Positions 466-28,981 of a DNA stretch of 55,669 nt are shown here, piece after piece. How positions within the stretch are numbered: position 1 is the stretch's first letter; every line of letters begins with the position of its first letter. The DNA comes from Pseudomonadota bacterium (GTDB lineage Archaea > Thermoplasmatota > SW-10-69-26 > JACQPN01 > JAJPHT01): assembly GCA_021325135.1 (NCBI GenBank), contig JAJPHT010000028.1:1-55669 (forward strand), in the 5' to 3' direction. Below the pieces are notes generated by a model. It did not search any database. It saw nothing but the letters and a program-made list of their open reading frames with translations, and had not been told where the DNA came from. The position numbers were made by a program, and so were the translations under genes.

Positions 466-783
466 TCAGTGCGCGCGCAGGTCACCGTTGTAGCCGCGGA
501 CGTTGCCCCGGCGGCGGTGGTAGCTCAGCAGCGTGTGGACGCGGGCCAGCGGCAGCCGCGTCTGGCGCTGGATCGCCCGGGCGTCGCGCGCCCCGCCGCG
601 GATGGCCGCCAGGACCTGGCTCGTCTGGGAGGGCCCCTTCCGACGCGCGGCAGTGGCCTCGTCCTGGCGGGGGTGGCGATCCGCATGCTCGTGGGCGCTG
701 GCCCGGCTCGCGAAGAGCTGGTAGCACGTCGTGCAGACGAACGCGGTGACCTTCCGGACGGGGCGCATGGTCGAGACTCCCAT
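466..783 (-). CDS. C2H2 zinc finger plus winged-helix small DNA-binding protein
   Basis: CTTC-YQLF-x8-H-ADR-H matches C-x2-C-x12-H-x3-H; C-terminal QVLAAIRGG…RAIQRQTRLPLARVHTLLSYHRRRGNV is wHTH-like. Confidence 0.7.
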   Translation of the reverse strand: MGVSTMRPVRKVTAFVCTTCYQLFASRASAHEHADRHPRQDEATAARRKGPSQTSQVLAAIRGGARDARAIQRQTRLPLARVHTLLSYHRRRGNVRGYNGDLRAH

Positions 784-794
784 TCGGGGAGTAT

Positions 795-812
795 TAGATG
801 ATTCTTGTGAAA
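795..812. promoter_or_regulatory. 18-bp candidate operator TAGATGATTCTTGTGAAA (copy 1)
   Basis: Identical to 2456-2473; lies 12-29 bp upstream of the 466-783 start. Confidence 0.6.
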
Positions 813-879
813 TTCAGTCTGGGCATGGCGCGTCCGCTGGACGAGAGGGTTTTGCTCTTGGAGAAGGAGCCGCTCTGGC

Positions 880-2367
880 TCAGTTCGCGCCCTTGCGGAG
901 TGCGTCGCGCACGAGGCGCTGGATGGGGGGCGAGGCGCGGAGGCGGTCGAACGTGTCGTCCAGCTCCACCTCCATGGCGAGGGTGGGGGTGCGGCTCAGG
1001 GCGCGGCCCAGGAACTCCGCCACGCGGGCGGCCTCGGCGCCCGTGGACGCGAGGAGCGTGGCCGCGACGAGGTCGGCCTCGCCGTCCTCGCTGAGGCGCG
1101 AGGCCTCGCGGTAGCAGGAGAGGGCCGCGTCGATCTCGCCCATGGCGGCGAGGCAGTCGGCCTCGTCGAGGCAGAGACGGCTGCTGGTGGGCGCGAGGTC
1201 GCGGGCGCGGCGGATCCAGTCCAGGGCCTCGGCAGGGCGGTTGGACTCCATGGCGAAGTCCGCGAGCTGGCGCAGCGCCTCCACGGAGAGCGTGGGGTCG
1301 GCCTCCACGTGGCGCCGGCGCGAGAGCGCGACGACCGCGCCCACGGCGAGGCCCACGGTGACGAGGGAGACGGGGAGCCACCACGAGGGGATGCTGCCCG
1401 GGAGGAGCTTGGACTGCCCCTGCACGTGGGGCGCGAGGTTGGTGTGGGCCAGCGTGCCCTGGACGTCGAAGGAGGAGGCCACGCCCTGGAGCGTCTCCTG
1501 GGGGTGGAGGGTGCCGCTGAGGGTCCCCTCGAGGTAGGCCTCCGTGCCCTGGGCGTCGTAGGTCCCCGAGCCGGTGGTCAGGGTCCCCGAGGCGTCGGGG
1601 AGCGTGACGCCGCCGACCCAGGAGAGGCGCGCGAGCCGGCCCGCCGCCTCCAGGGGGCCGCGGGTCTTCAGGGTCATCTCGCCGGCGTCGAAGACGATGG
1701 TGAGCCAGGTCTCCCGGACGCCACGGACGGGGGCGCTGGAGGAGAGGTGGCGACCCGTGTTCCAGGTGGTCGTGTTCTCAAGGGCCGTCAGGGTCACGGA
1801 GGGGCCGTCGAGCTTGATGGCGCCGGCGCCACGGAACTCGGCGGCGCCTTCTCCGTTGACCACGATGGCGGAGCCGTTCTGGCAGCAGCTGTAGGTGGGC
1901 GTCCAGGGGTTCACCTGGTCCTCGGGGATGGGGGAGCCCATGCGGGCGTTGTCCACGGCGCCGATGGTGGCCGGGCCTTCAAGCCCGAGGTCCAGGGAGC
2001 CTTCGGTGGGATAGAGGCCGGCCTGTCCCGCGACGGAGCCGGCGACCAGCGTGACGGTCAGGTTGGTGAGGTCGTACGAGGACTCGGGGGCGTTGAAGGC
2101 GTTGCAGTAGTTCAGCACGGGGGTGGAGATCTCGGTGCAGGAGCTGTCGCGCCGGAAGACGTGCGCGTGCGCCGCCTTGAGCTGGAAGGCCGTGAGCTGC
2201 TCGGTGTGGTCCGCGAGCAGGCCCATGGGGGTCATCTCGACGACGCCACCCGAGTCCAGGGTCGCGACGCCGTTGAAGGTGAAGCTGCCCTGGTCCAGGG
2301 CGAGGGCCCCAGGCGTCGCTAGGAGCGCGACTGCGAGTGCGACGGCAAGCCGCCATCCCCAAGGCAC
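880..2367 (-). CDS. Single-pass membrane protein: signal peptide, beta-rich ectodomain, TM, cytoplasmic TPR (receptor-like; paralog A)
   Basis: N-terminal hydrophobic signal; TM WWLPVSLVTVGLAVGAVVALS followed by RRR; TPR-like helices (AEALDWIRRARDLAP, AALSCYREASRLS); DDTFDRLRASP end motif; homologous to 24948-26486. Confidence 0.8.
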   Translation of the reverse strand: MPWGWRLAVALAVALLATPGALALDQGSFTFNGVATLDSGGVVEMTPMGLLADHTEQLTAFQLKAAHAHVFRRDSSCTEISTPVLNYCNAFNAPESSYDLTNLTVTLVAGSVAGQAGLYPTEGSLDLGLEGPATIGAVDNARMGSPIPEDQVNPWTPTYSCCQNGSAIVVNGEGAAEFRGAGAIKLDGPSVTLTALENTTTWNTGRHLSSSAPVRGVRETWLTIVFDAGEMTLKTRGPLEAAGRLARLSWVGGVTLPDASGTLTTGSGTYDAQGTEAYLEGTLSGTLHPQETLQGVASSFDVQGTLAHTNLAPHVQGQSKLLPGSIPSWWLPVSLVTVGLAVGAVVALSRRRHVEADPTLSVEALRQLADFAMESNRPAEALDWIRRARDLAPTSSRLCLDEADCLAAMGEIDAALSCYREASRLSEDGEADLVAATLLASTGAEAARVAEFLGRALSRTPTLAMEVELDDTFDRLRASPPIQRLVRDALRKGAN

Positions 2368-2455
2368 GCGTGCGGGAAGTCGCCGGCGGCTCTTGTGCTT
2401 TGCCTCACAAACGCGGTGAACACAGCCCGGAATCCAGATCCGAACACGGTAAAAC

Positions 2456-2473
2456 TAGATGATTCTTGTGAAA
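2456..2473. promoter_or_regulatory. 18-bp candidate operator TAGATGATTCTTGTGAAA (copy 2)
   Basis: Exact copy of 795-812, in a divergent intergenic region. Confidence 0.6.
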
Positions 2474-2533
2474 AACCGTGCAGGGGTGCGTCATGGTTAT
2501 GGTCGGCGAGGAAATGCAGCCGGGAGGCTTCCC

Positions 2534-2947
2534 ATGCGACAGATGATCCTGCTACTCGCGATCACCGCGATCGCGCCCGTGATGAGCGCAAGCTCTCCCC
2601 CGCCGCCGCCCATGAGCGTCGCGGCCATCGTGGTCGACCCCGCTGCCACGATCGTCTCGTGGCTCCCCCCGCCGACGACCAACGTCGCCCTGACCTACCA
2701 CGTCTATGGCGTCACCACGAGCGGCCCCGTCCTCCTCGCGTCCACCGACGGCACGGCTGCGGTCGTGTCCAGCGGGTACGAGGTGTACGAGGTCCGGGCC
2801 CTCATGGATGGCCAGGAGAGCTCGCCCGCCTCCACGGGCGAGGCCTGCCTCGAGACGACGCTGACCCCCCCACCCCCCAACGCGTGGCTGAACCCGGCCT
2901 GCAGCCCGGACGCGGTCTACCTTCACGTCATGGTGCCCCACCCGTGA
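2534..2947 (+). CDS. Small secreted FN3-like protein with C-terminal Cys-PPP-Cys loop (paralog A)
   Basis: GGGAGG before ATG 2534; signal peptide; VSWLPP…YHVYG…YEVRA…ES FN3-like pattern; homologous to 24296-24745. Confidence 0.75.
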   Translation: MRQMILLLAITAIAPVMSASSPPPPPMSVAAIVVDPAATIVSWLPPPTTNVALTYHVYGVTTSGPVLLASTDGTAAVVSSGYEVYEVRALMDGQESSPASTGEACLETTLTPPPPNAWLNPACSPDAVYLHVMVPHP

Positions 2948-3014
2948 GTGCTCTCGGCTGCGGGGTGGAAATGGTTAAGTTTGGCTTGACCAAACCGGGC
3001 GTGGAGGCTGAGCC

Positions 3015-3584
3015 ATGCCCTTAGGAGGACTCGCCGCCGTGGCGATGGATCAGCTTGCGCGCATCGGCCTCACCATGCCGATGATGGGCAGGCACGGCGC
3101 GGGGCGAAGCGAGGCCCGCGTCCTCGAGTCGGCGCTGCGCCGCCAGATCGTCGATATCATCCGCCAGGAGCCCGGCATCGCCATCGGTGGCCTGCTGGAG
3201 AAGCTCCCGGTGGGCTGGGGGACGGTCTACCACCACCTCTCCAAGCTGGAGCGCGGCGGCATCGTCCGCTGCGTGACCTCGGGGCGCCGCCGTCTTCTCT
3301 ACCTCGTGGAGCAGGGCGCCGCCGGGCAGGACCCGCACCAGCGCTCGCTCCTGGGCGGCCACACCGCCCGCACCATCGCGACCATCGTCGCGGAGGGGCA
3401 AGGGATGAGCATCGAGGCCATCGTGGAGCGCAGCCACGAGACGCCGCGCGTCGTCTACTACCACCTCAAGCGCCTCATCGAGGCGGGCCTCATCCAGTCG
3501 GAGTCCGCCACGCGATATCGCGGCCTCGTGGCCAGCGACCGCCTCCGCGAGCTTCTCGCCGAAGCGCGGCAGCGGGCTGCTTAG
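3015..3584 (+). CDS. Tandem winged-helix (ArsR-like) transcriptional regulator
   Basis: Two wHTH units: RRQIVDIIRQEPG…WGTVYHHLSKLERGG and RVVYYHLKRLIEAGLI; start may be 3045. Confidence 0.85.
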   Translation: MPLGGLAAVAMDQLARIGLTMPMMGRHGAGRSEARVLESALRRQIVDIIRQEPGIAIGGLLEKLPVGWGTVYHHLSKLERGGIVRCVTSGRRRLLYLVEQGAAGQDPHQRSLLGGHTARTIATIVAEGQGMSIEAIVERSHETPRVVYYHLKRLIEAGLIQSESATRYRGLVASDRLRELLAEARQRAA

Positions 3585-3651: not shown

Positions 3652-5157
3652 CTATCGTCTCCGGCGCAGCGCCAACGCCACGAGCACGGCGCCCAGCGCG
3701 GGCACCAGCGCGACGCCGGGCGCGTTCTTGGTGTGCACGGTGAGCACCCACTCGCGGCCGTCGGGGTAGAAGTCCTTCATCGTGCCGGTGTCGGGGCCGT
3801 CCTGGGCCTCGATGCGGTACGTGACGTTGGTCGCGTGGCCCGAGCCGTCGATGCGCTGGAACTCCAGCGGCAGGCGGAAGGCGGCCAGCGAGACGTTGGT
3901 CTGCTGGAAGGCAATGGTGCCGTTGGACGTGTAGTAGGCGGTGAAGTTCTCGCCGGTGAGGTTCACGCCGCGGCTGTCCCGCACGCGGAAGACCGAGGTC
4001 TTGAGGAGCTGGAAGTTCCCCATGGCGCCCGCGTTGGCGGGGAGCACGGGCAGCGTGTCGTTGCGCGGGAGGTCCGTGATGGCCGCGCCGAAGCCCGTGA
4101 CGCCGGTGAAGGTGACGTTGGTGAGGTTGAACCCCGCGCTGGCGACGCGCAGCGCGTTGCCCGCGATGGGGCCGAGCGCGCCGTCGGCGAGGGTGAGGTT
4201 CTTGCCGCCAACAGAGAGGACGGCGGAGTCGACGGGGCTCTCCGTCCGGATGGAGAAGTGCTTGAGGTGAAGCTCCGGCGTGCCCTGGTTGCCCACCTGC
4301 GCGGGCTCCAGGTCCACGGCGTGGCTCGTGAAGTTCGTGCAGGTGAAGCCGTCGAAGTCGAGGATGTCGCCCGCGATGGCCAGGAAGCAGGTGGCGCTGT
4401 CGCGCACGTTGACGTCCCGGATGTGCAGGATGCTCCCGCGCACGGTGAGCGCGGTGCCGGCGCCCTCGAAGGAGAGGTTCTGCATGCGGACGGGGACGCT
4501 GGGCACGGTGACGAAGAGCGTGCCGCCCGCGCCGTGGAAGTCGACGTTGGTGAAGTTGCCCGTGGCGCGGCTGACGAGCGCGGCCACGCCGGAGGTGGAG
4601 TTGAACGTCGCGTGGTCCGCGTTGAGGGTCCCCCCCTCGCCCGCGAGGAAGCCCGCGGAGTAGTTGGTGACGATGACGTGGCTGAGCGTGCCCGTGCCGT
4701 CCAGGAGGGTGAAGCCGCCCTGGAAGAAGATCGTCTGCCCCGACTTCCCGGTCTGCCCCCGCAGGCCGTCCAGGACGACGGGATCGCTCTCTGTGCCCAC
4801 GAAGGAGAAGTCGCCCTCGACGCGGGCGCCCCAGCCCGGGCCGTCGCCGCCCACGAAGCGCGCCGCGCGGCCGGGGAGGCTCTCGACGATGAGCTTGCTC
4901 CCCGCCTCGACGTTGACGCTGGCGTTCATCAGGGTCACCGTGATGCCGCGGATTGTTAGCGTGGCGTTGTCGGTGACGTTGAGCACGCCGTCCTTCACGA
5001 CCTGGTCCTGGCCGTCCCAGACGGTGTCGTGGTCGATGGTCGTCTCCTGGGGCCCCGCCTGGGCGTGGGCACCTGGGATCAGGAGGCTCACGACGAGGAA
5101 TGCGAGGAGAACGCGGGGGGCGCGCATGAGGGCCGGCGCACCCCGTTGGGGCCCCAT
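3652..5157 (-). CDS. Cell-surface right-handed beta-helix (pectin-lyase-like) protein with PGF-CTERM-like anchor
   Basis: Signal peptide; beta-helix-like repeats; many N-x-S/T sequons; C-terminus APGVALVPALGAVLVALALRRRR; start may be 5127. Confidence 0.75.
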   Translation of the reverse strand: MGPQRGAPALMRAPRVLLAFLVVSLLIPGAHAQAGPQETTIDHDTVWDGQDQVVKDGVLNVTDNATLTIRGITVTLMNASVNVEAGSKLIVESLPGRAARFVGGDGPGWGARVEGDFSFVGTESDPVVLDGLRGQTGKSGQTIFFQGGFTLLDGTGTLSHVIVTNYSAGFLAGEGGTLNADHATFNSTSGVAALVSRATGNFTNVDFHGAGGTLFVTVPSVPVRMQNLSFEGAGTALTVRGSILHIRDVNVRDSATCFLAIAGDILDFDGFTCTNFTSHAVDLEPAQVGNQGTPELHLKHFSIRTESPVDSAVLSVGGKNLTLADGALGPIAGNALRVASAGFNLTNVTFTGVTGFGAAITDLPRNDTLPVLPANAGAMGNFQLLKTSVFRVRDSRGVNLTGENFTAYYTSNGTIAFQQTNVSLAAFRLPLEFQRIDGSGHATNVTYRIEAQDGPDTGTMKDFYPDGREWVLTVHTKNAPGVALVPALGAVLVALALRRRR

Positions 5158-5165
5158 GACCTTGT

Positions 5166-5183
5166 TGGAGAATTGTTGTGAAT
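5166..5183. promoter_or_regulatory. Candidate operator variant TGGAGAATTGTTGTGAAT (copy 3)
   Basis: Matches the 18-bp motif; divergent region, 9-26 bp upstream of ATG 5157. Confidence 0.5.
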
Positions 5184-5244: not shown

Positions 5245-8200
5245 GTGAGCGGGAAGGAGCCTCGCGGACGCCGCGGGCGCGCCGCACGTTGGCGTCCCCA
5301 GCACGTGCGCTGGGCCTCCCTCGCCCTGGCCGCCCTGGCGGTCTGCCTCCTTCTCGGAAGCGCCCTCCTTCTCCACCTCCAGCAGCCGACCCTGCCGGCG
5401 GCCGCCTCGCAGGTGTCGGCCCCCGACCTCGACCACGACGGCATCCCCGACGCGGTGGAGAACGCCATCCTCGGCACGGACCCCCACGCGCGCACCACCG
5501 TGGGCGCGCTCCCGGGCGCCTGGGTCGCGGACCACGCCCTGGACATCACGGACCCGAACCTTCCCAACGAGACGGCGCCCTACCCGCGCCCCCCGGACAG
5601 CCCCGCCGTCTACGGCCCCGCCGGCCTGCCCGCGGAGTACCGCATGACGCTGGCGCAGGTCTACGCCTACGGGCGCCCCGCGACGTGGGACGAGACCAAG
5701 GACGGCCTCTGGGGTTCCGGCCTCGACCCCAAGCGGTGGGACGTGAACGGCACCGGCGTCCCGTACTCCTGGCTCATCCACTTCGGCCTCGACCCCAAGG
5801 ACGCCACGCTCCTGGACAAGGTCCCCAGCGCGCCCGGCGTCCACTGGACGCCCCGCGAGGCGTACCAGCGCGGCCTCTCCCCCGTCTCGGCCGACGGCGA
5901 CGCGGACGGCCTGCTGGACGAGGCGGAGCTCCAGCGCGGCACGAGCCCGCGCCTCTACTCCACCACGGGGAGCGGCATCGCCGACGGCTGGCTCGTCCTC
6001 CACGGCTTCGATCCGCTGGACCCCGCGGTGCCCTACCAGGACACCGACCACGACGGGCTCACCAACCTGGAGGAGTTCCAGGCCTCCATGCGCCTCGACG
6101 CCAAGGGCACGCTGGAAGGCAAGGGGCTTGACCCGCGCTCGCAGAGCACGGGCGGCAGCGGCATCCCCGACGGGTGGCTCGTGAAGCACGGCCTCAACCC
6201 CCTGGAGCCCGGCGTGGGCGCGCGCGTCACCGAGGCGGAGACGCTCAAGCGCGCCAACGGCACGCAGGAGCACGTGGAGTTGACCGTCAAGGACGAGTAC
6301 GCCGTGAACCGCCCTCCCAGCTGGAACGAGTCGGTGAACGGCCCCTGGTGGGGCGGCACCGACCCCACCAAGAGCGACACCGACGGCGACGGCCTCACCG
6401 ACCTGGAGGAGATCCTCGGCTTTGACATCCGGGTGGGCCAGGCCACCAAGCACGTCGTCTCCGACCCCACCAAGGGCGACACCGACGGCGACGGCCTGCC
6501 CGCCCCCGCCGAGGTCAACGGCCGCTTCCGCAACGTCACCTTCTCGCCCACCGACCCCTCCTCGCCCGACACCGACGGCGACGGCCTCACCGACGGGCAG
6601 GAGCTTGGCATCGAGCCCTACCAGGGCGTGACGCTCCCCGTCCTCAACCCCAACGAGCCCGACTCGGACCACGACGGCGTGCGCGACGGCGAGGAGGCCG
6701 GCTACTGGATCCACCGATATCAGGACGCCAAGGCGGCGCCCACCGCGCCGTATCCCGGCGGCCCGCCCGACGCGAAGACCACGCTGCGCGACGTGTTCGC
6801 GAAGCCCGGCGAGGGCGACTCCGTGTGGATCGCGCGCTTCATGCCCGGCGGCGACCTGGACGGCGACGGCATCCCCAACCTGCTGGACCCCGACTCCGAC
6901 GGCGACGGCCTGCTGGACGGCTGGGAGGTCCACCCCGAGCAGTACCGCTCCACGCAGTTCGCGTCCGACCAGCCGCGCTCGGCCAGCGACCCCGCCAACG
7001 CGGACACGGACCGCGACGGCCTGCCTGACGGCTGGGAGGTCCAGTACGGCGCGTTCGACTCCTCGCTCCACGGCTGGAACCTCGACCCTGCCAAGTGGTC
7101 CTCCTTCGGCGATGGCGCCTCCGACGCGGACAAGGACCTCGACGGCGACAGCATCACGTGGTACTCCTACGCGCAGACCCCCACGGGCATGAAGGGCACG
7201 GCGCACCAGTTCGTGGCCTCGAACCTCGTGGAGTACAAGGCGGGCTCCGACCCCAACCGCCGCTCCAGCAGCCCCGACGGCATCCCCGACGGCTGGAAGA
7301 TCTTCTGGGGCAGCGCGTACATCGGCCTCTCCCGCGAGGACCGCGGCGTCGTCTACCCCGGCGCTCCTGGCGACTTCTCGCTCCCCTCCGGCGTCGCGCC
7401 CCCGCGCATCGGCGCCGACGACCGCCGCCCCGGCGACACGCTCACCTACCGGCGATATCAGCCCGCCAACGCCACCGACCGCCTCCCATGGGAGACCGTC
7501 GTGGACACGCAGCCCGCGTTCAAGGACGACGCGGGCAACCCCGCGGGCTATCGCCTCCTCGCCGGCACCGTCACGAAGGACTACGCGGGCTCCGCCGAGA
7601 ACGGCACGAACCCCTACGTCCCCGACACCGACGGCGACGGCATGCCCGACCTGTGGGAAGGCGTGTGGGCGCGCCTCTCGCTGGCCAAGGACCACGTCAG
7701 CCCGGTCGTCCCCGACGCCAGCGGCGACCCGGACCACGACACGGTGAAGAACCTCGACGAGTACCGCGCCGGCACCGACCCGTACCGCGCGGACTCCGAC
7801 TTCGGCGGCGCCACCGACGACGTGGAGATCACGCTCCATCTCAACCCCATGCTGCCCGGCGACGACGCCAAGGCGCTGGACTCCAAGACCGACACCGACG
7901 GCGACGGCATCCCCGACGTGCTGGAGCGCCTGGGCCAGGTGGGCGCCGACGGCCACCGCATCGTCACGGACCCCAACGACATGGACACGGACCACGACGG
8001 CCTGCTGGACGGCAAGGCGTGGTCGCAGGTCCACGGCCGCGTCCTGCGCCTCGCCAACGCCGCCGACAACGCCACCGCCAAGGCCCTCGCGGCCCGCGGC
8101 CTCACCGTGATCGTGGCGGGCGACGGCACCGCGGACGTGCCCGGCGAGGAGTCGGTGGGCTCGGACCCCACGCAGTGGTCCACCTCTGGGACCGGCATCC

Positions 8201-11200
8201 CCGACGGCTGGGCGGTGCAGCACGGCTTCTCGCCCCTCCAGCCCGGCGACTGGCAGGCCGCCTACGGCTACGGCCGCCCCGCGTGGTGGAGCGAGCCCCT
8301 GGACGGCGTGTGGCACTGGGGCCTGGAGCCGGGCCAGACCGCCACGCGCGACATGGACAAGGACGGCCTGGACGACTTCAACGGGGAGGACCCCATCCCC
8401 ATCGCGAACCCGCACAACGTCCTCCCCCTGGGCGACCCCACGGAGCCCGGCATCAGCGCGCTGGACCGCCTGATGCGCTCGCAGGCCTACGGCGAGCCGC
8501 GCAACGCGACGCCGGTCCCCGACCGCATCGGCACGACGCTCCAACTGGACCCGCTGCCCCCCTCGCTGGACACCAACGGCACGGCCCTCTTCTCGGGCAA
8601 TCTCACGACGACGCGCAACGAGCCCGTGGCCAACGCCACCGTGCTCCTCTCGCTGGGCACGCGCGACCTCGTGCTGGGCGTCGCCATCACCAACGAGACG
8701 GGAGGCTTCCGCGCGCCCGTCCTCCTCGCCACCAGCCTCCACGCGCCGGATGATAGCAACGGCATCCCCGTCTTCGGCCGCTCCGACGGGCAGGGCGTCC
8801 ACGACAACGACGCGAAGCTCCTGGGCGCCAGCGACCCCACGCGCAGCGCGACGCTCTTCGCGTGGGCGTACAACGTCTCCCCCTTCGAGGGCGGCCGCCA
8901 GGGCGCGGCGCACCACCTCACCGACAAGACCACGGCGCGCGGCGTCCTGGGCAGCCAGAGCGCGTCCCAGACGACGCGGCTCAACCTCTCCACGACCCTC
9001 GCGCTGGTGACGCCCGCCGAGGTCCGCGCGGGCGACGCGGCCGCGGTCAACGCCACGCTCCTCGACGGCCTCGGGCGGCCGGTCCCCGGCGCGCTCGTCG
9101 ACGTGGAGCCCGTGGGCGCCACGGCGCGCACGGGCGACAACGGCACCGTCAACCTCACCGTCCTCCCGCAGGGCCTCGGCCCGTGGAACGTCTCCGTCTC
9201 CTTCGCGGGCGACGGCGGCCTCCTCCCCAGCAGCGTGAACGGCACCATCAGCGTGCGCGAGCCCACCCTCCTCTCCTTCACGCGCGGCTCCGCCCAGTCG
9301 CGCCCCGGCCAGACCCTCGCGCTTCCCGGCATCCTCCTCGCCCTCAACGGAACGGCGATCCCCAACGCGCCCGTGGACGTCTCGTTCGACGGCGAGCACG
9401 TCGCCGCGACGACGAAGGCGGACGGCAGCTTCGACGCCTCCTTCGACGTGTCCCCCGGGGCCGAGCCCGGCGACGCCCTTGCGCGCGTCTCCTTTGGAGG
9501 CGACGACCTCCTCGCGCCCTCCGCGGCCAACCTCTCCATCCAGGTCGTGGGTGTCCCGACGTGGCGCGTGCAGGACGTGGTCGCTCCCGCCTCCGACCCC
9601 GGCGACCTCGCGGCGCGCCTCGTCGACGCCTCCGACCGGCCCATCCCCAACGCCAGCGTGACGCTCCTCGTGGAGGGCCGCCTCCTGGCGAACCGCACCA
9701 ACGAGGGCGGCCTCGCCATCTTCCCCCTCGCGGACCTGGGCCTCGCCGCCGGCACGCACACCCTGGTCCTGGGCTACTCCGACCCCGTGCAGGGCTCCGA
9801 CGACGCGCCCGTCACGGTCACCCTCTTCTCCCCCACCACGCTCTCCCTCGACGCGGCCACCCTGGTGCGCGGCGCCCCCTCGCCCATCGAGGGGCGCCTC
9901 ACCGCCGGGGGCGCCGCGGTGCCGGGCGCCTTCGTGCGCGTCTCCCTGGGGGACGCCTCCGTGCGCGCCCGCACCGACGCGGACGGCCGCTTCGAGGCGC
10001 CCCTCCTCCTGGGCAACGAGACGCCCCTGGGACCCGCCCTCGTGGAGGCGAGCTACCCCGGCACCGCGGACGGCATCCTGCTCTCCACCAACCTCACGCA
10101 CGCCGCGAAGGTGGAGGACGCCGCGACGCTCACGCTCTCCGACGCCTCGGTGAAGCTGCGCGCCCCAATCCTCGAAGGGAAGGTCAAGACGCTCCTGGGC
10201 GACGCACTCCCCGACCGCTCGCTGGGCCTCACCCCCGCGGGCGGAGGCCGGACCGAGGCCGTGAGCGCCACCGACGGCTCCTTCGCCGCGCGCCTCAACG
10301 TCTCGCCCGCCACCCCGCTGGGCCCCCTCCAGATCGCCGTCTCCATGCCCTCGGAGGACTCGCTCGTGGGCATCGACCAGGAGGTCGCCCTGCTCCTGCG
10401 CGACGACGGCACGATCAACGCCTCGGTCCCCGCCACCGCGACGCTGGGCGATCCGCTCCCCTTCGACGCGCAGGTCGTGGACAGCGTGGGCCGGCCCGTC
10501 CCCGACGCCAAGCTCCGCGTCACGCTGGACGGGGTCCCCATGGGCGTGCTCGCGCCGGGCGCGCAGCCCCTCGCGCTCCCCAAGGGCGCGACGCTGGGCC
10601 AGCACACCCTCCAGATCGCCGCCGTCTCGCGCCTCGTGGACGCGCAGCCCGCGAGCTTCCCCCTCCTCCTCCGCGAGGCCGCCGCGCTGCGCGTCGTCTC
10701 GCTGGACCCCGGCGTCTCGGGCGGCACGGGGCGCGTGACGCTGCACCTGGCCACCGACGCCGCGCCGCTGGCGGGCCGCAGCGTGCTCGTCACCGGCGTC
10801 TCGCAGGCCGCGCTCAACGTCACCACCGACGCCCACGGCGACGCCGTCGTCACGCTCCCCGCGGGCCTGCGCCCCGGCTCCGTGCTCCAGATGGCCTTCG
10901 GCGGCGACGGGGGCGCCAGCGCCGCGGTCGTCACCGCGCGCGTCCCCGTCGCGGGCAGCGCCGTCGAGCCGGCGCGCGCCTCGCTCCTCGTCCCCATCCT
11001 CGGGGGCGCGCTCCTCCTGCTCGTCGTCGCGGCGCTCCTTCTCTGGCGCTACCGCGCGACGCCCGCCGAGCGCGCGCAGCGCGTCCTGCGCGAGACGGCG
11101 CGCGCCCTGCGCGACCCGCGCGCCGACATCGCGATCCTCCACCAGAGCTACAAGCGCCTGCTGCGCCTCGCGGGCCTGGACGAGGACTCCGCCGAGCGCC

Positions 11201-11424
11201 TCACCTTCGCCGACATCATGCACCGCATCGCGCCCTCCACCGACGGCGCGCGCGGCGCCATCCTCACGCTCACCGAGATCTACAACCACGCGGTGTACGC
11301 GCCGCACCTCGTCGATCGCGAGAGCCTCGTCGCCGCGGCCGACGCCTTGAGCCAGATCGCGGCCGAGATCGACCCCACGCAGGGCCCGCTGCCCCCTGAA
11401 GGGGCTCCGGAGGTGGCCCCGTGA
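5245..11424 (+). CDS. Giant membrane-anchored protein: many DxDGDG Ca-binding repeats, Ig-like domains, C-terminal TM and DUF4129-like tail
   Basis: Repeated DTDGDG/DSDGDG motifs (TSP3/binary-toxin-like), Ig-like beta-sandwich stretch, TM LLVPILGGALLLLVVAALLLW, tail with LTEIYNHAVYA. Confidence 0.85.
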   Translation: MSGKEPRGRRGRAARWRPQHVRWASLALAALAVCLLLGSALLLHLQQPTLPAAASQVSAPDLDHDGIPDAVENAILGTDPHARTTVGALPGAWVADHALDITDPNLPNETAPYPRPPDSPAVYGPAGLPAEYRMTLAQVYAYGRPATWDETKDGLWGSGLDPKRWDVNGTGVPYSWLIHFGLDPKDATLLDKVPSAPGVHWTPREAYQRGLSPVSADGDADGLLDEAELQRGTSPRLYSTTGSGIADGWLVLHGFDPLDPAVPYQDTDHDGLTNLEEFQASMRLDAKGTLEGKGLDPRSQSTGGSGIPDGWLVKHGLNPLEPGVGARVTEAETLKRANGTQEHVELTVKDEYAVNRPPSWNESVNGPWWGGTDPTKSDTDGDGLTDLEEILGFDIRVGQATKHVVSDPTKGDTDGDGLPAPAEVNGRFRNVTFSPTDPSSPDTDGDGLTDGQELGIEPYQGVTLPVLNPNEPDSDHDGVRDGEEAGYWIHRYQDAKAAPTAPYPGGPPDAKTTLRDVFAKPGEGDSVWIARFMPGGDLDGDGIPNLLDPDSDGDGLLDGWEVHPEQYRSTQFASDQPRSASDPANADTDRDGLPDGWEVQYGAFDSSLHGWNLDPAKWSSFGDGASDADKDLDGDSITWYSYAQTPTGMKGTAHQFVASNLVEYKAGSDPNRRSSSPDGIPDGWKIFWGSAYIGLSREDRGVVYPGAPGDFSLPSGVAPPRIGADDRRPGDTLTYRRYQPANATDRLPWETVVDTQPAFKDDAGNPAGYRLLAGTVTKDYAGSAENGTNPYVPDTDGDGMPDLWEGVWARLSLAKDHVSPVVPDASGDPDHDTVKNLDEYRAGTDPYRADSDFGGATDDVEITLHLNPMLPGDDAKALDSKTDTDGDGIPDVLERLGQVGADGHRIVTDPNDMDTDHDGLLDGKAWSQVHGRVLRLANAADNATAKALAARGLTVIVAGDGTADVPGEESVGSDPTQWSTSGTGIPDGWAVQHGFSPLQPGDWQAAYGYGRPAWWSEPLDGVWHWGLEPGQTATRDMDKDGLDDFNGEDPIPIANPHNVLPLGDPTEPGISALDRLMRSQAYGEPRNATPVPDRIGTTLQLDPLPPSLDTNGTALFSGNLTTTRNEPVANATVLLSLGTRDLVLGVAITNETGGFRAPVLLATSLHAPDDSNGIPVFGRSDGQGVHDNDAKLLGASDPTRSATLFAWAYNVSPFEGGRQGAAHHLTDKTTARGVLGSQSASQTTRLNLSTTLALVTPAEVRAGDAAAVNATLLDGLGRPVPGALVDVEPVGATARTGDNGTVNLTVLPQGLGPWNVSVSFAGDGGLLPSSVNGTISVREPTLLSFTRGSAQSRPGQTLALPGILLALNGTAIPNAPVDVSFDGEHVAATTKADGSFDASFDVSPGAEPGDALARVSFGGDDLLAPSAANLSIQVVGVPTWRVQDVVAPASDPGDLAARLVDASDRPIPNASVTLLVEGRLLANRTNEGGLAIFPLADLGLAAGTHTLVLGYSDPVQGSDDAPVTVTLFSPTTLSLDAATLVRGAPSPIEGRLTAGGAAVPGAFVRVSLGDASVRARTDADGRFEAPLLLGNETPLGPALVEASYPGTADGILLSTNLTHAAKVEDAATLTLSDASVKLRAPILEGKVKTLLGDALPDRSLGLTPAGGGRTEAVSATDGSFAARLNVSPATPLGPLQIAVSMPSEDSLVGIDQEVALLLRDDGTINASVPATATLGDPLPFDAQVVDSVGRPVPDAKLRVTLDGVPMGVLAPGAQPLALPKGATLGQHTLQIAAVSRLVDAQPASFPLLLREAAALRVVSLDPGVSGGTGRVTLHLATDAAPLAGRSVLVTGVSQAALNVTTDAHGDAVVTLPAGLRPGSVLQMAFGGDGGASAAVVTARVPVAGSAVEPARASLLVPILGGALLLLVVAALLLWRYRATPAERAQRVLRETARALRDPRADIAILHQSYKRLLRLAGLDEDSAERLTFADIMHRIAPSTDGARGAILTLTEIYNHAVYAPHLVDRESLVAAADALSQIAAEIDPTQGPLPPEGAPEVAP

Positions 11425-24295: not shown

Positions 24296-24745
24296 CTACG
24301 GGAGTCCGACCAGAAGGGTTTCCAGCTTCACGCGCCCCCCGATTCCGATTGGGCAACCCACCGCGCCGCTCGGGGGCGGGCCAGGATCAAATGTGATGCA
24401 GGGAAGGTTCGCTGTGAGCGCCAGGATTGCGGGTGATTCGGCGTTGCCGGTGATGGCTGACACGGAGTAGCCCGCGAAGCCCGCGGACACCTCGGCCCGG
24501 GGCTCGGCGTTTCCGCTGACGGTGGCGAGGAGGGAGGGCGCGTTCGGGTCGTCATACCCATACACCGCGTAGTAGTCCGGAGCTTGGGCACCCGGGGTCC
24601 ACTCCACGAGGGTCACATCCCCCGACTTGACGGCGAAGGCAACGGCGGGCGTTGTGGGATCGGGGAGAAGGCCTGCGGCGGGGGAAGCTCCGACCGTGGC
24701 GAGGAGAAGGCCAAAGGCGAGGAGCAAACGCAAGCGTGCGGACAT
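24296..24745 (-). CDS. Small secreted FN3-like protein with Cys-PPP-Cys loop (paralog B)
   Basis: Signal peptide; TLVEWTPG…YAVYG…PSLLA…YSVSA…ES…C…PPP…C. Confidence 0.75.
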   Translation of the reverse strand: MSARLRLLLAFGLLLATVGASPAAGLLPDPTTPAVAFAVKSGDVTLVEWTPGAQAPDYYAVYGYDDPNAPSLLATVSGNAEPRAEVSAGFAGYSVSAITGNAESPAILALTANLPCITFDPGPPPSGAVGCPIGIGGRVKLETLLVGLP

Positions 24746-24863: not shown

Positions 24864-24881
24864 TAGAGATTTGTTGTGAAA
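24864..24881. promoter_or_regulatory. Candidate operator variant TAGAGATTTGTTGTGAAA (copy 4)
   Basis: 14/18 identical to copies 1 and 2; in the divergent region of the second receptor module. Confidence 0.55.
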
Positions 24882-24947: not shown

Positions 24948-26486
24948 ATGCGTTCTCTTGCGGGCAGGCTGGCCGCTGGATTTGTTCTCATGGCGCTTCT
25001 TGCGCCTCTCGTTGCGGCGGACGCAAGCGGCGATATCGCCACTCAGGGGCCCGCCACGTTCGACGGCCCTTCCGGAGGTCGCTATCAAGCAAGCGCCTTC
25101 TTCTTGCCCGACGCCTCGGCTCTCGCCTCCTTGTCGGTCGTCGGGTCGGCTCGCCTTTGCCACAACGAATGGACCTTGCAGGAGGTCCAAGTCCCGCAGG
25201 CGAGCAGCAATCCGCTCTATCGGCAGCCCACGGACAAGAAGGAGGGTTGCTTCGACACGGACGCCATTACTCTCTCCCTGGGACCCGGAGCGATGGGAGG
25301 TTGGCTTGGGGGCCGCTTCTCGGGCCCTGGCGCGTTCGACTTCACGGGCGCGGGGCCGGTCGTCGTCCAGCCTTCGGCCTCGTCCACCATGGCGAATCCA
25401 GATGCCTACTATGGGACCACCAATCCCACGCAAGACAGCCCCGACAAACCGTGGTTCTTTGAGCGCACGGTGGGACCGCACCTGAACATCACCGCCTCGG
25501 GCACTGCGCGCTATCACGGCACGGGCGAAATCAAATTCATGGGCCTCTCGGTGACGGTGACGACGCCCGCGAACCGCACGGACTATCAGACCGGCGACAC
25601 CGCCGGGACCGGCCCGCTCCATCAGCGGGAGTGGCGATGGATGACCGTTGACTTTGTGGGCGATCTGGTCCTTGAGAGCCCCCGCGCCGCGCTGGAGGTC
25701 CAGGCCACCGCCGCCTCCGTCTCCTGGGAAGGCGTGGCCCGGTTCGTGGCCGAGTCGGGGACGCTCACCATGGACGGGCGCTCCTACCCGCTCGCGGCGG
25801 GCGAGCCGGCCACGCTGGAGGGCCGATTCTCCGCGGACGTGAAGCCCGAGGGGTCGGACGGGAGCGCGCTGCGCGTGAGCCTCGCGGGCGAGGCGCGCAA
25901 CGCGGCGCTGGGGAGCGTGCGCGTCGCCACGGTGCCCGGCGGCCCCGCCTTCCCGTGGGCCACCGTGGCGGGCGTGGTGGTGGCGGCGGTCGTCGTGGGC
26001 GGCACGACCGTGGCCGCGCTGCGGCGCCACGCGCGGCCCAGGCGTGCGTTGCAGGCCGAGGCGTTGGCGCGGGAAGCCGGGCGGCTGGCGGAGGAGGGCG
26101 GCATGGCGCGCGAGGCGTTGGCGCTCTACCAGGCGGCGATTCGGCGTGCGCCTTCGGCGGCCTATTTCCTGGCCTCGGGTCACCTCTGGCGCGAGTTGGG
26201 AAAGCCGCGGCGGGCGCTGCGGTGCTTCGCGCGGGCGGCCAAGACCGGCAAGGGCGGGGCGGCGGAGTACGGTGCGATCATAGCGGCGCTCGATCTTGGC
26301 GCCGAGGACGCGGCGGCGGGGTTGGTTGTCTTGGCGTTGCAGCGGGGCGACTTGGAGCCGCGGCTCTTGAGCGTGTTTGCCACGGACGCGGGCTTTGCGG
26401 TCCTGCGCGAGCGGGAGCCCGTGAAGGAGGCGTTAGAGGCCGCGAAGCAGCGGCAGGAGTCGCGGGGCTGGCCGAGCTTGCGTTAG
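24948..26486 (+). CDS. Single-pass receptor-like protein with cytoplasmic TPR (paralog B)
   Basis: Signal peptide; ectodomain homologous to 880-2367; TM; TPRs (REALALYQAAIRRAP, RRALRCFARAA); DAGFAVLR end motif. Confidence 0.8.
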   Translation: MRSLAGRLAAGFVLMALLAPLVAADASGDIATQGPATFDGPSGGRYQASAFFLPDASALASLSVVGSARLCHNEWTLQEVQVPQASSNPLYRQPTDKKEGCFDTDAITLSLGPGAMGGWLGGRFSGPGAFDFTGAGPVVVQPSASSTMANPDAYYGTTNPTQDSPDKPWFFERTVGPHLNITASGTARYHGTGEIKFMGLSVTVTTPANRTDYQTGDTAGTGPLHQREWRWMTVDFVGDLVLESPRAALEVQATAASVSWEGVARFVAESGTLTMDGRSYPLAAGEPATLEGRFSADVKPEGSDGSALRVSLAGEARNAALGSVRVATVPGGPAFPWATVAGVVVAAVVVGGTTVAALRRHARPRRALQAEALAREAGRLAEEGGMAREALALYQAAIRRAPSAAYFLASGHLWRELGKPRRALRCFARAAKTGKGGAAEYGAIIAALDLGAEDAAAGLVVLALQRGDLEPRLLSVFATDAGFAVLREREPVKEALEAAKQRQESRGWPSLR

Positions 26487-26881
26487 TGCTTCTTCTCGCG
26501 CTCCTTGCGCTCGCGGGCCTTCTTGGCCCACTCGTCGGCCTGCATCTCGGCATCCGCGACCCGAAGGCCTTCCGGCGTCAGGTAGGTCCAGACGTAAGGG
26601 ACCTTGTTCTCATATCCCTCTTCGACGCGCAAGAGTCCGACGGCCTCCATTCTCTCGCGCCAAACGGCGCCCATCTCGATAGAAAGCTGCATGGCGTCGG
26701 CATTCTCGCGGGCGCTCAAAGGCTCGGGGTGCTTCTGCCGGTGGGCGATCAGGGAGCGCCTGACGCGATGACTGGCTAGGATTTCCTCCAAAGGCGCTCC
26801 CCCGGCTGACGGGAGCAAAGCCGCTGCACTCAGGAAACCCTTTTGTTCATGTAGTCGAATCAGGTCGACTGGTCGAACCAT
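26483..26881 (-). CDS. Winged-helix (MarR/ArsR-like) DNA-binding protein
   Basis: LSARENADAMQLS…RMEAVGLLRV…YLTPEG wing motif. Confidence 0.65.
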   Translation of the reverse strand: MVRPVDLIRLHEQKGFLSAAALLPSAGGAPLEEILASHRVRRSLIAHRQKHPEPLSARENADAMQLSIEMGAVWRERMEAVGLLRVEEGYENKVPYVWTYLTPEGLRVADAEMQADEWAKKARERKEREKKH

Positions 26882-27383: not shown

Positions 27384-27968
27384 ATGAAGACAGCATTCGC
27401 ATTCCTCGTGGTGTTCGTCACCATGAGTGGGATCGCCGCCGCTCAGAACATCGAATCTCTCAAGGGCCCCGAGATTTACGCGGTGGGCGTGCCCAACGTT
27501 GACACGGGGCCGGCTTTGCAGGTCATCAGTTCAGTTCTCGCCAGCGACCCTGACAAGGCGTGCGAGAACACCGACGCGAAGGCGGCCCCCGCCTGCAACT
27601 TCCACTGCGCTACGGGGGATCTCCTGTACGTCGACGCCAGCAGCACGGACACGCCCCCGGGCATCGCGCACGTCTACGCGGACGCCGACTGCGCGGGTAT
27701 CGGTGCCCACTGCGACGGGGACCTGCACTGCGAAGGCACGTCATCCGCCACGGTCCCCACGGACGGCCCGGGGCACTGCTCCGCAAGCACCGACGAGCCA
27801 TGGTTCTCCAAGGACTCGGCGACCGTCACCTGCTCCTCGGCCCCCGCGAAGAATACCGGGGACATCCTGACGCTCTCGATGGGCCTCCAGGGGAACCATC
27901 TCGTGAGCGCCGTCTACACGCTCGTGCAGCCCGACGGAACCGTGTTCATCTATCACGTCCATATGTAA
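27384..27968 (+). CDS. Secreted cysteine-rich protein (paralog 1)
   Basis: Signal peptide; CNFHC…ADCAGIGAHC…C…DGPGHCSASTDE…VTC. Confidence 0.75.
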   Translation: MKTAFAFLVVFVTMSGIAAAQNIESLKGPEIYAVGVPNVDTGPALQVISSVLASDPDKACENTDAKAAPACNFHCATGDLLYVDASSTDTPPGIAHVYADADCAGIGAHCDGDLHCEGTSSATVPTDGPGHCSASTDEPWFSKDSATVTCSSAPAKNTGDILTLSMGLQGNHLVSAVYTLVQPDGTVFIYHVHM

Positions 27969-28576: not shown

Positions 28577-28981
28577 TTACGTCACAACATCGCACTTCAC
28601 CATCAGCAGGTCCCGGGCCCAAGGCATCTCATTCGTGCTGGCCGAGCAAGCTCCGGGCCCGTCGGCGGGAATGCGCGCGCTTTGGTCATGGCAAGCCAAC
28701 GCATGATCGGTGCAGTGGGCACCGACACCCGCGCAATCTGCTGCGCCTTGAACATATGGGAACCAAGACCCATCGGCGCTACGCACTTCCACGGAAAGCC
28801 GCGCGCCCGCCGGGCATACAAAATAGCACGTCACGACGCCATAGCCCTTCGCTTCGCAGCTTTGCGTCCCCTCGCCCATTCTTTCGACGGTGGTTGGAGC
28901 GCGCCAGGAAGCGGCGACCGGAGCGCCGACCACCAACAGGAGGAGAAGCGTCGCCACCAACAGCGCCTTCTTCCGATGCAC
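28577..28981 (-). CDS. Secreted cysteine-rich protein (paralog 2)
   Basis: Signal peptide; CYFVC…ADCAGVGAHC…C…DGPGACSASTNE…VKC. Confidence 0.75.
   Translation of the reverse strand: MHRKKALLVATLLLLLVVGAPVAASWRAPTTVERMGEGTQSCEAKGYGVVTCYFVCPAGARLSVEVRSADGSWFPYVQGAADCAGVGAHCTDHALACHDQSARIPADGPGACSASTNEMPWARDLLMVKCDVVT

Follow-up and report, generated by a model that had tools for sequence, protein, structure and literature searches.

Secreted hairpin proteins paired with single-pass receptors and winged helix-turn-helix regulators in an uncultured archaeal lineage

The window analyzed here is a 55,669-nucleotide stretch (contig JAJPHT010000028.1, assembly GCA_021325135.1) of a Thermoplasmatota genome of 3.77 Mb and 71.6% GC. 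We found that two loci in it, A and B, are members of a set of about 11 paralogous modules in this genome. Each module combines a receptor (signal peptide, all-beta ectodomain, one transmembrane (TM) segment and a tetratricopeptide repeat (TPR) tail) with a small secreted partner and a winged helix-turn-helix (wHTH) regulator. The module is real, selected and widespread in an uncultured archaeal lineage, and it very probably has some sensory role; that the partner serves its cognate receptor as a regulated ligand, in a kinase-free three-part signalling unit, we consider an even proposition. An earlier, sequence-only reading of the window had described the two loci as a repeated module. All of its open reading frames (ORFs) were recovered where it had placed them, and the repeat proved to be larger than it had noted.

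Receptors and the linkage of the partner to the ectodomain

As that reading had claimed, receptors A and B are homologous (26% identity over 507 aligned columns, E-value 3e-30), each with an N-terminal hydrophobic stretch, one TM segment (from residues ~331 in A and ~340 in B) and a C-terminal TPR region. The Pfam model TPR_2 matched receptor A at 5e-8 and receptor B weakly, and the family profile matched consensus TPR structures at 4e-82. Iterated profile searches of this genome identified ten full ectodomain-TM-TPR receptors, a divergent eleventh TPR receptor on C44 and one tail-less ectodomain-TM protein. Searching with a profile built from 28 ectodomains recovered a family of 642 clusters at 50% identity, 245 of them below 1e-30, and the same TPR domain stood at the C-terminal end in 145 of the best 150 ectodomain matches. 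A signal peptide and a single TM segment followed by lysine or arginine were found in 133 of 139 receptors. With 11 candidates scored per genome, the ectodomain was present in 19 of the 21 genomes of the class and in 5 of the 180 genomes sampled outside it.

The AlphaFold2 model of the ectodomain was confident and all-beta, with long strands (pLDDT 94.9). There was no clear family match in Pfam or among PDB sequences, searches that do not exclude a family, and no clear fold match (Foldseek TM-score ≤0.13 by query; VIA best Z 6.5 over ~96/311 residues; Atlas TM-score ≤0.24, with Atlas features blank), a lack that does not prove a new ectodomain fold. The most variable segments were a hairpin at residues 51-70 and the stretches 101-110 and 121-140, which are candidates for determining specificity.

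Genome context supports the ectodomain as the input domain of a regulator, because in six paralogues of this genome it is fused to a TM segment and a tandem wHTH. Genome-wide there are ~30 membrane regulators of the form signal peptide, ectodomain and tandem wHTH, most of them with other ectodomains; archaeal genomes on average have ~4 transmembrane regulators (PMC10269533), far fewer than this. Among 30 signal-peptide wHTH membrane regulators, a divergently encoded small secreted Cys protein accompanied 6/6 of the fusions carrying this same ectodomain and 0/24 of the others, the control rate of such a neighbor being 33/482 secreted proteins. The partners that accompany the fused form, although rich in Cys, fit the loop consensus given below more poorly. 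Under a strict filter nine of the ten TPR receptors had a partner, and the tenth had one under a looser filter. The partner thus follows the ectodomain, whatever the cytoplasmic output.

Receptor-partner linkage was kept across genomes and metagenome contigs, bearing out the conservation of gene neighborhood that the sequence-only reading had expected. On independent metagenome contigs a divergent partner was present in nine of ten cases, the tenth having a partner ~2.9 kb away, and a wHTH gene lay beside the module in eight. One such locus, L090, is orthologous and syntenic to locus A and retains the receptor (44% identity), the partner (42%) and the neighboring secreted protein (44.5%), and the module layout also occurs in other orders and classes.

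The secreted partner and its cysteine hairpin

A gene for a small secreted protein lies 5' of the receptor at almost all loci. The two window partners are homologous (33% identity, E-value 4e-9) and head-to-head with their receptors, as had been described; this layout is typical of the present family, but in distant families the partner lies upstream on the same strand. The partners had also been described as FN3-like proteins with a Cys-PPP-Cys loop. Both window partners do carry an FN3 domain plus a Cys-flanked hairpin, but the FN3 domain is dispensable and the conserved unit is the Cys-PP-Cys hairpin. About half of the partners have FN3 and the loop, and the rest are prepeptides of 56-89 residues with the loop only, sometimes with two loops; the mature peptide-only forms have ~35-45 residues. 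FN3 may be absent, upstream or downstream of the hairpin, the loop preceding FN3 in some distant families, and the hairpin also occurs alone and in tandem. Because FN3 is absent from many partners and on either side of the loop in others, the constant partner element is a Cys–Pro-Pro–Cys beta-hairpin, with FN3 optional. The candidate role of FN3 as the essential ligand was rejected since FN3 is dispensable.

The loop comprises two cysteines, alternating Val/Ile and usually a Pro-Pro turn, with 11-22 residues inside (consensus C-[VI]-x-[VI]-x2-4-PP-x-[VI]-x-[VI]-x-C), and its disulfide Cys pair is invariant. In the AlphaFold2 model of partner A, the strands of an FN3 sandwich (pLDDT >90 over most of the domain) are followed by a two-strand hairpin from Cys105 to Cys123. 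The N-terminal domain matches the FN3 seven-strand fold, with a Foldseek probability of 1.0, FN3tt TM-scores of 0.65-0.68 by target and Atlas TM-scores of 0.52-0.66. A hidden Markov model of the loop only, built from 30 partners of other genomes, had in its top 8 of 3,581 candidate ORFs an orphan copy of partner B as well as six partners linked to receptors. That orphan, L030 (G000:C15:~140.9-141.7 kb), is a 774-bp copy, 93% identical, which includes the promoter region and an unchanged loop and has no receptor. In a tandem partner duplicate the FN3 domains were 80% identical and the loops 40%.

The signal peptide of the partners appears to be cleavable, and most partners lack any other membrane anchor. 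Membrane-active antimicrobial peptides are unlike these acidic, Pro-rich proteins, and a function as cationic antimicrobial peptides was rejected on that ground.

Regulators, the TPR tail and a shared DNA motif

Every one of the 11 TPR receptors had a wHTH gene within 2.5 kb, either D-type (free tandem) or S-type (single, mostly convergent). Six of the seven closest paralogues of 3045-3584 lay within 2.5 kb of a TPR-family gene, as did seven of the ten genome members of the 26483-26881 family within 1.8 kb, but the wHTH profiles were built from receptor-linked genes and these linkage figures therefore overstate. Of the wHTH genes that had been assigned to the two loci, the tandem gene 3015/3045-3584 and the single wHTH-like gene 26483-26881 stood, and 466-783, whose relatives are mostly not next to receptors, was rejected as a core part. 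The tandem protein is HVO_0163_N-like and scored 27 bits against repress_SdpR (cut-off 100). On C23 and C46, TPR genes that are free or consist of only the TM-TPR tail retain a D- or S-type neighbor. The ectodomain-less TPR-family genes of L031, L032, L040, L043 and L045, free or TM-anchored, mostly still adjoin a wHTH regulator, and an ORF of ~8,700 residues (G000:C46:104676-130844) adjoins a TPR-wHTH cluster.

Regulator type follows the TPR tree. With rows having both regulator types or none left out, the D/S label changed twice on the TPR tree, where shuffling gave a mean of 8.5 changes (0/500); on the ectodomain tree it changed six times (16/500). Distances correlated between TPR and S-type regulators (r=0.48, p=0.001) and were nearly uncorrelated between ectodomain and TPR (r=0.12); kin share labels, and both the tree counts and the Mantel tests overstate for this reason. 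A single S clade was neither shown nor rejected by the AU test. The pattern suggests that two halves, ectodomain-partner and TPR-regulator, have recombined between loci.

The sequence-only reading had placed the same 18-bp motif in both divergent gaps. It is exact in the gap of locus A, whose second exact copy lies upstream of 466-783, but the locus B copy agrees at only 14/18 positions, and the motif is found genome-wide. De novo Gibbs sampling found only signal-peptide codons. A matrix that took the window 18-mer as its seed and other genomes as its training set scored ≥14 bits in 8/11 module gaps of this genome versus 16/601 divergent gaps, and gave 53 intergenic matches genome-wide versus 0-4 in shuffles, counting both orientations. 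Matches were enriched before genes with an N-terminal hydrophobic stretch (35/1175 versus 15/2278; odds ratio 4.6, p=2e-7). Exact pattern counts were 23 in this genome, 12 in G002 and 0-3 elsewhere, in step with receptor copy numbers. An operator specific to the module was rejected in view of the ~53 intergenic sites and of a copy between two secreted-protein genes, and the motif is best read as a putative operator controlling a broader regulon of secreted proteins. Its candidate binder is the 466-783 protein, which has C2H2 zinc-finger spacing before an HTH. The family has six members in this genome, two of them within 250 bp of a receptor, six in G002 and otherwise 0-1, parallel to the motif counts. 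Of the nine genomes of the family, seven have a full-length member; G000 and G002 have additional short copies, and the motif lies upstream of several.

Table 1. Coordinates of module genes and motif copies in the window
Feature	Position	Strand	Description
Receptor A	880..2367	-	Signal peptide, residues 1-24; ~290-residue all-beta ectodomain, ~1363-2295; TM segment, residues ~331-351; cytoplasmic TPR / TPR-end domain, 883-1299
Secreted partner A	2534..2947	+	Signal peptide, FN3, Cys105-Cys123 beta-hairpin with Pro-Pro turn (2846-2902)
Free tandem wHTH regulator, D type	3045..3584 (start may be 3015)	+	Co-oriented with partner A; Pfam HTH_20 8e-14, HTH_HVO_0163_N 8e-11
Receptor B	24948..26486	+	Architecture as receptor A; TPR in clade linked to single-wHTH regulators
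Secreted partner B	24296..24745	-	Signal peptide, FN3, Cys116-Cys131 hairpin (24353-24400)
Single wHTH regulator, S type	26483..26881	-	Convergent on receptor B stop, 4-nt overlap; weak HTH_34
C2H2-spaced zinc finger + HTH protein	466..783	-	Loosely associated, non-core; C-x2-C-x3-F-x8-H-x3-H
Operator-like motif, GGAG-N6-TGTGAA type	2456..2473	+	Divergent gap of locus A
18-mer identical to 2456-2473	795..812	+	Upstream of 466-783
Motif copy, 14/18	24864..24881	+	Divergent gap of locus B
Fourth motif copy	5166..5183	+	Between two large secreted-protein genes

Two large secreted or surface proteins are encoded next to locus A (3652-5127 and 5305-11424), and the motif lies in the gap that separates them. 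The protein encoded at 3652-5127 ends in a tail resembling a sorting signal, and L090 retains it next to its orthologous module. Just past the S-type regulator are two paralogous Cys-rich secreted proteins (27384-27968 and 28577-28981; 46% over 81 residues) and a lipoprotein-like gene, which are possible targets. Elsewhere, ARAGORN called a tRNA-SeC with a TCA anticodon (G000:C15:46271-46358). This may be a false call, as such a tRNA is to our knowledge unexpected in Thermoplasmatota.

Proposed role, alternatives and precedents

From the genomes we propose both a ligand role for the partner and an output for the module. The signal peptide would export the partner, one disulfide would close the hairpin, and FN3, where present, would serve as a carrier. 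The hydrophobic face of the hairpin may then bind the ectodomain of the adjacently encoded receptor and change its oligomeric state or conformation, or its exposure to proteolysis, upon which the cytoplasmic TPR would hold or release the separately encoded D or S wHTH, as their co-segregation suggests. The fused paralogues would represent a one-piece version of the circuit, and the likely outputs are secreted and surface proteins. The label kinase-free, which the sequence-only reading had used, agrees with a crude scan that found no kinase motif ≤3 kb from any receptor. Cognate specificity and self-recognition, also proposed there, may hold as well. With its many divergent paralogues the system could keep numerous channels private, as would suit the sensing of density or kin. 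Extended to multi-channel, gene-encoded archaeal peptide communication, in which diffusible disulfide-hairpin pheromones meet cognate single-pass receptors and TPR-controlled wHTH proteins, with the halves shuffled to rewire inputs and outputs, the proposal becomes more tentative, and we think it somewhat doubtful.

Several observations weigh against the ligand proposal. A crude scan near the loci saw no processing protease or exporter motif dedicated to the partners. No partner was detectable for L038, L041, the second receptor of L047 or the ectodomain-only C36. The congruence of receptor and partner that had been expected was not significant, their distance correlation being weak (r=0.18, p=0.057), and the overstated regulator linkage and tree figures noted above count here too. 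Finally, the co-oriented partner-receptor operons of distant families fit an obligate subunit equally well.

Such a subunit would stay on the producer cell and complete or stabilize the ectodomain sheet, as with ToxS, TcpH and VtrC, while the complex senses some other cue. The single partner per receptor, tied to this ectodomain regardless of cytoplasmic output, would be expected, and known co-component systems show fast-evolving pairs and protection from degradation (PMC9214523). However, the partners have an apparently cleavable signal peptide and mostly no anchor, the peptide-only forms are too small for a ligand pocket, the larger ones match FN3 and not lipocalin, some receptors have no partner, and one partner copy has no receptor. 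We judge this account unlikely, while giving it serious weight.

Alternatively, the hairpin could be an inhibitory plug in an envelope or protease sentinel, its loss through proteolysis, reduction or failed export switching the receptor and inducing secreted or surface proteins. The invariant disulfide would suit this, as would the presence of the motif in most module gaps and its enrichment before secreted or membrane protein genes; but ~17 divergent receptor-partner pairs with variable loops are more than a general sentinel would require, and the motif is tied to no module regulator, which leaves this reading improbable. Slightly more improbable is an adhesion or surface-structure pair whose wHTH genes are neighbors regulating the pair and not signal outputs. 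FN3 and long beta folds are common among surface proteins, and there were weak FN3 matches in giant surface proteins, but the direct fusion of the ectodomain to tandem wHTH in six paralogues and the tracking of regulator type by TPR clade argue otherwise. A toxin paired with a receptor for immunity or sensing, on the pattern of SdpC-SdpI-SdpR, has matching three-protein logic (PMC1626106) and the SdpR-family match of the tandem wHTH, weak and far below cut-off, but is very improbable given that the acidic, Pro-rich partners contain neither a membrane-active segment nor a recognized catalytic domain, and that the receptor is single-pass and not polytopic.

Returning to the ligand proposal, we compared the window modules with known systems, and they fail a defining feature of each family. 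In comCDE and agr a propeptide gene lies beside the receptor gene, with many specificity groups, and signalling is by a histidine kinase receptor and a response regulator. The peptide-receptor-regulator order of comCDE recurs in the distant-family operons, but here the cytoplasmic part is a ~140-residue TPR, and a crude scan found no histidine kinase motif within 3 kb. The closest working precedent appears to be SdpC-SdpI-SdpR, whose parts are unrelated and in which a membrane protein sequesters a repressor in response to a secreted protein (PMC1626106, PMC2910880). Shared with it are a small secreted protein, a membrane receptor, a separately encoded regulator, adjacent genes and no kinase, the membrane holding of the regulator being proposed here. 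However, SdpC is a toxin and SdpI crosses the membrane several times, whereas the present units, ~11 in number, have a single-pass receptor with a ~290-residue ectodomain, a TPR tail and an acidic partner; no module protein matched the SdpI or SdpC family.

The six fused paralogues, which join a TM segment to a DNA-binding domain, are by that definition transmembrane transcription regulators like ToxR, CadC and archaeal ArnR (PMC10269533, PMC6396743), but the window receptors end in TPR, with a separate regulator gene and a dedicated secreted partner linked. VtrA/VtrC, ToxR/ToxS and TcpP/TcpH are likewise fast-evolving two-gene cassettes of a membrane regulator and an extracytoplasmic partner (PMC9214523); here the partner is FN3 plus hairpin or a bare hairpin instead of a membrane-tethered lipocalin-like barrel, is often divergently encoded, and faces a receptor oriented N-out, C-in. 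RRNPP systems share a propeptide gene adjoining the receptor gene, many specificity groups and TPR, but their receptors are intracellular and the TPR binds the peptide (PMC10075063), while here TPR and partner are on opposite sides of the membrane. What is new is that receptor and partner match no family of the Sdp or co-component systems; the kinase-free ligand-receptor-regulator logic itself has precedent there. We found no published description of this module in the literature searched, which covered few subscription papers.

Cell-cell signalling in archaea is poorly known. Its best-studied signal, the DFS of the Haloferax volcanii DFS/QarABC quorum sensing, is proteinase-K-resistant, probably an as yet unidentified small molecule, and acts via a two-component system (PMC12240190, PMC13464002). 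The modules described here, proposed from genomes to serve archaeal cell-cell signalling too, differ in having a gene-encoded hairpin as candidate ligand. The candidate ligands are short, gene-encoded and synthesizable, the receptors are paired with them by position, and there are hundreds of natural variants, so that binding and specificity are testable without culturing. If the proposal is true, it would reveal a way of crossing the membrane that uses a TPR and no kinase, would define a new family of sensor domains, and would provide a natural series of membrane regulators running from fused to split.

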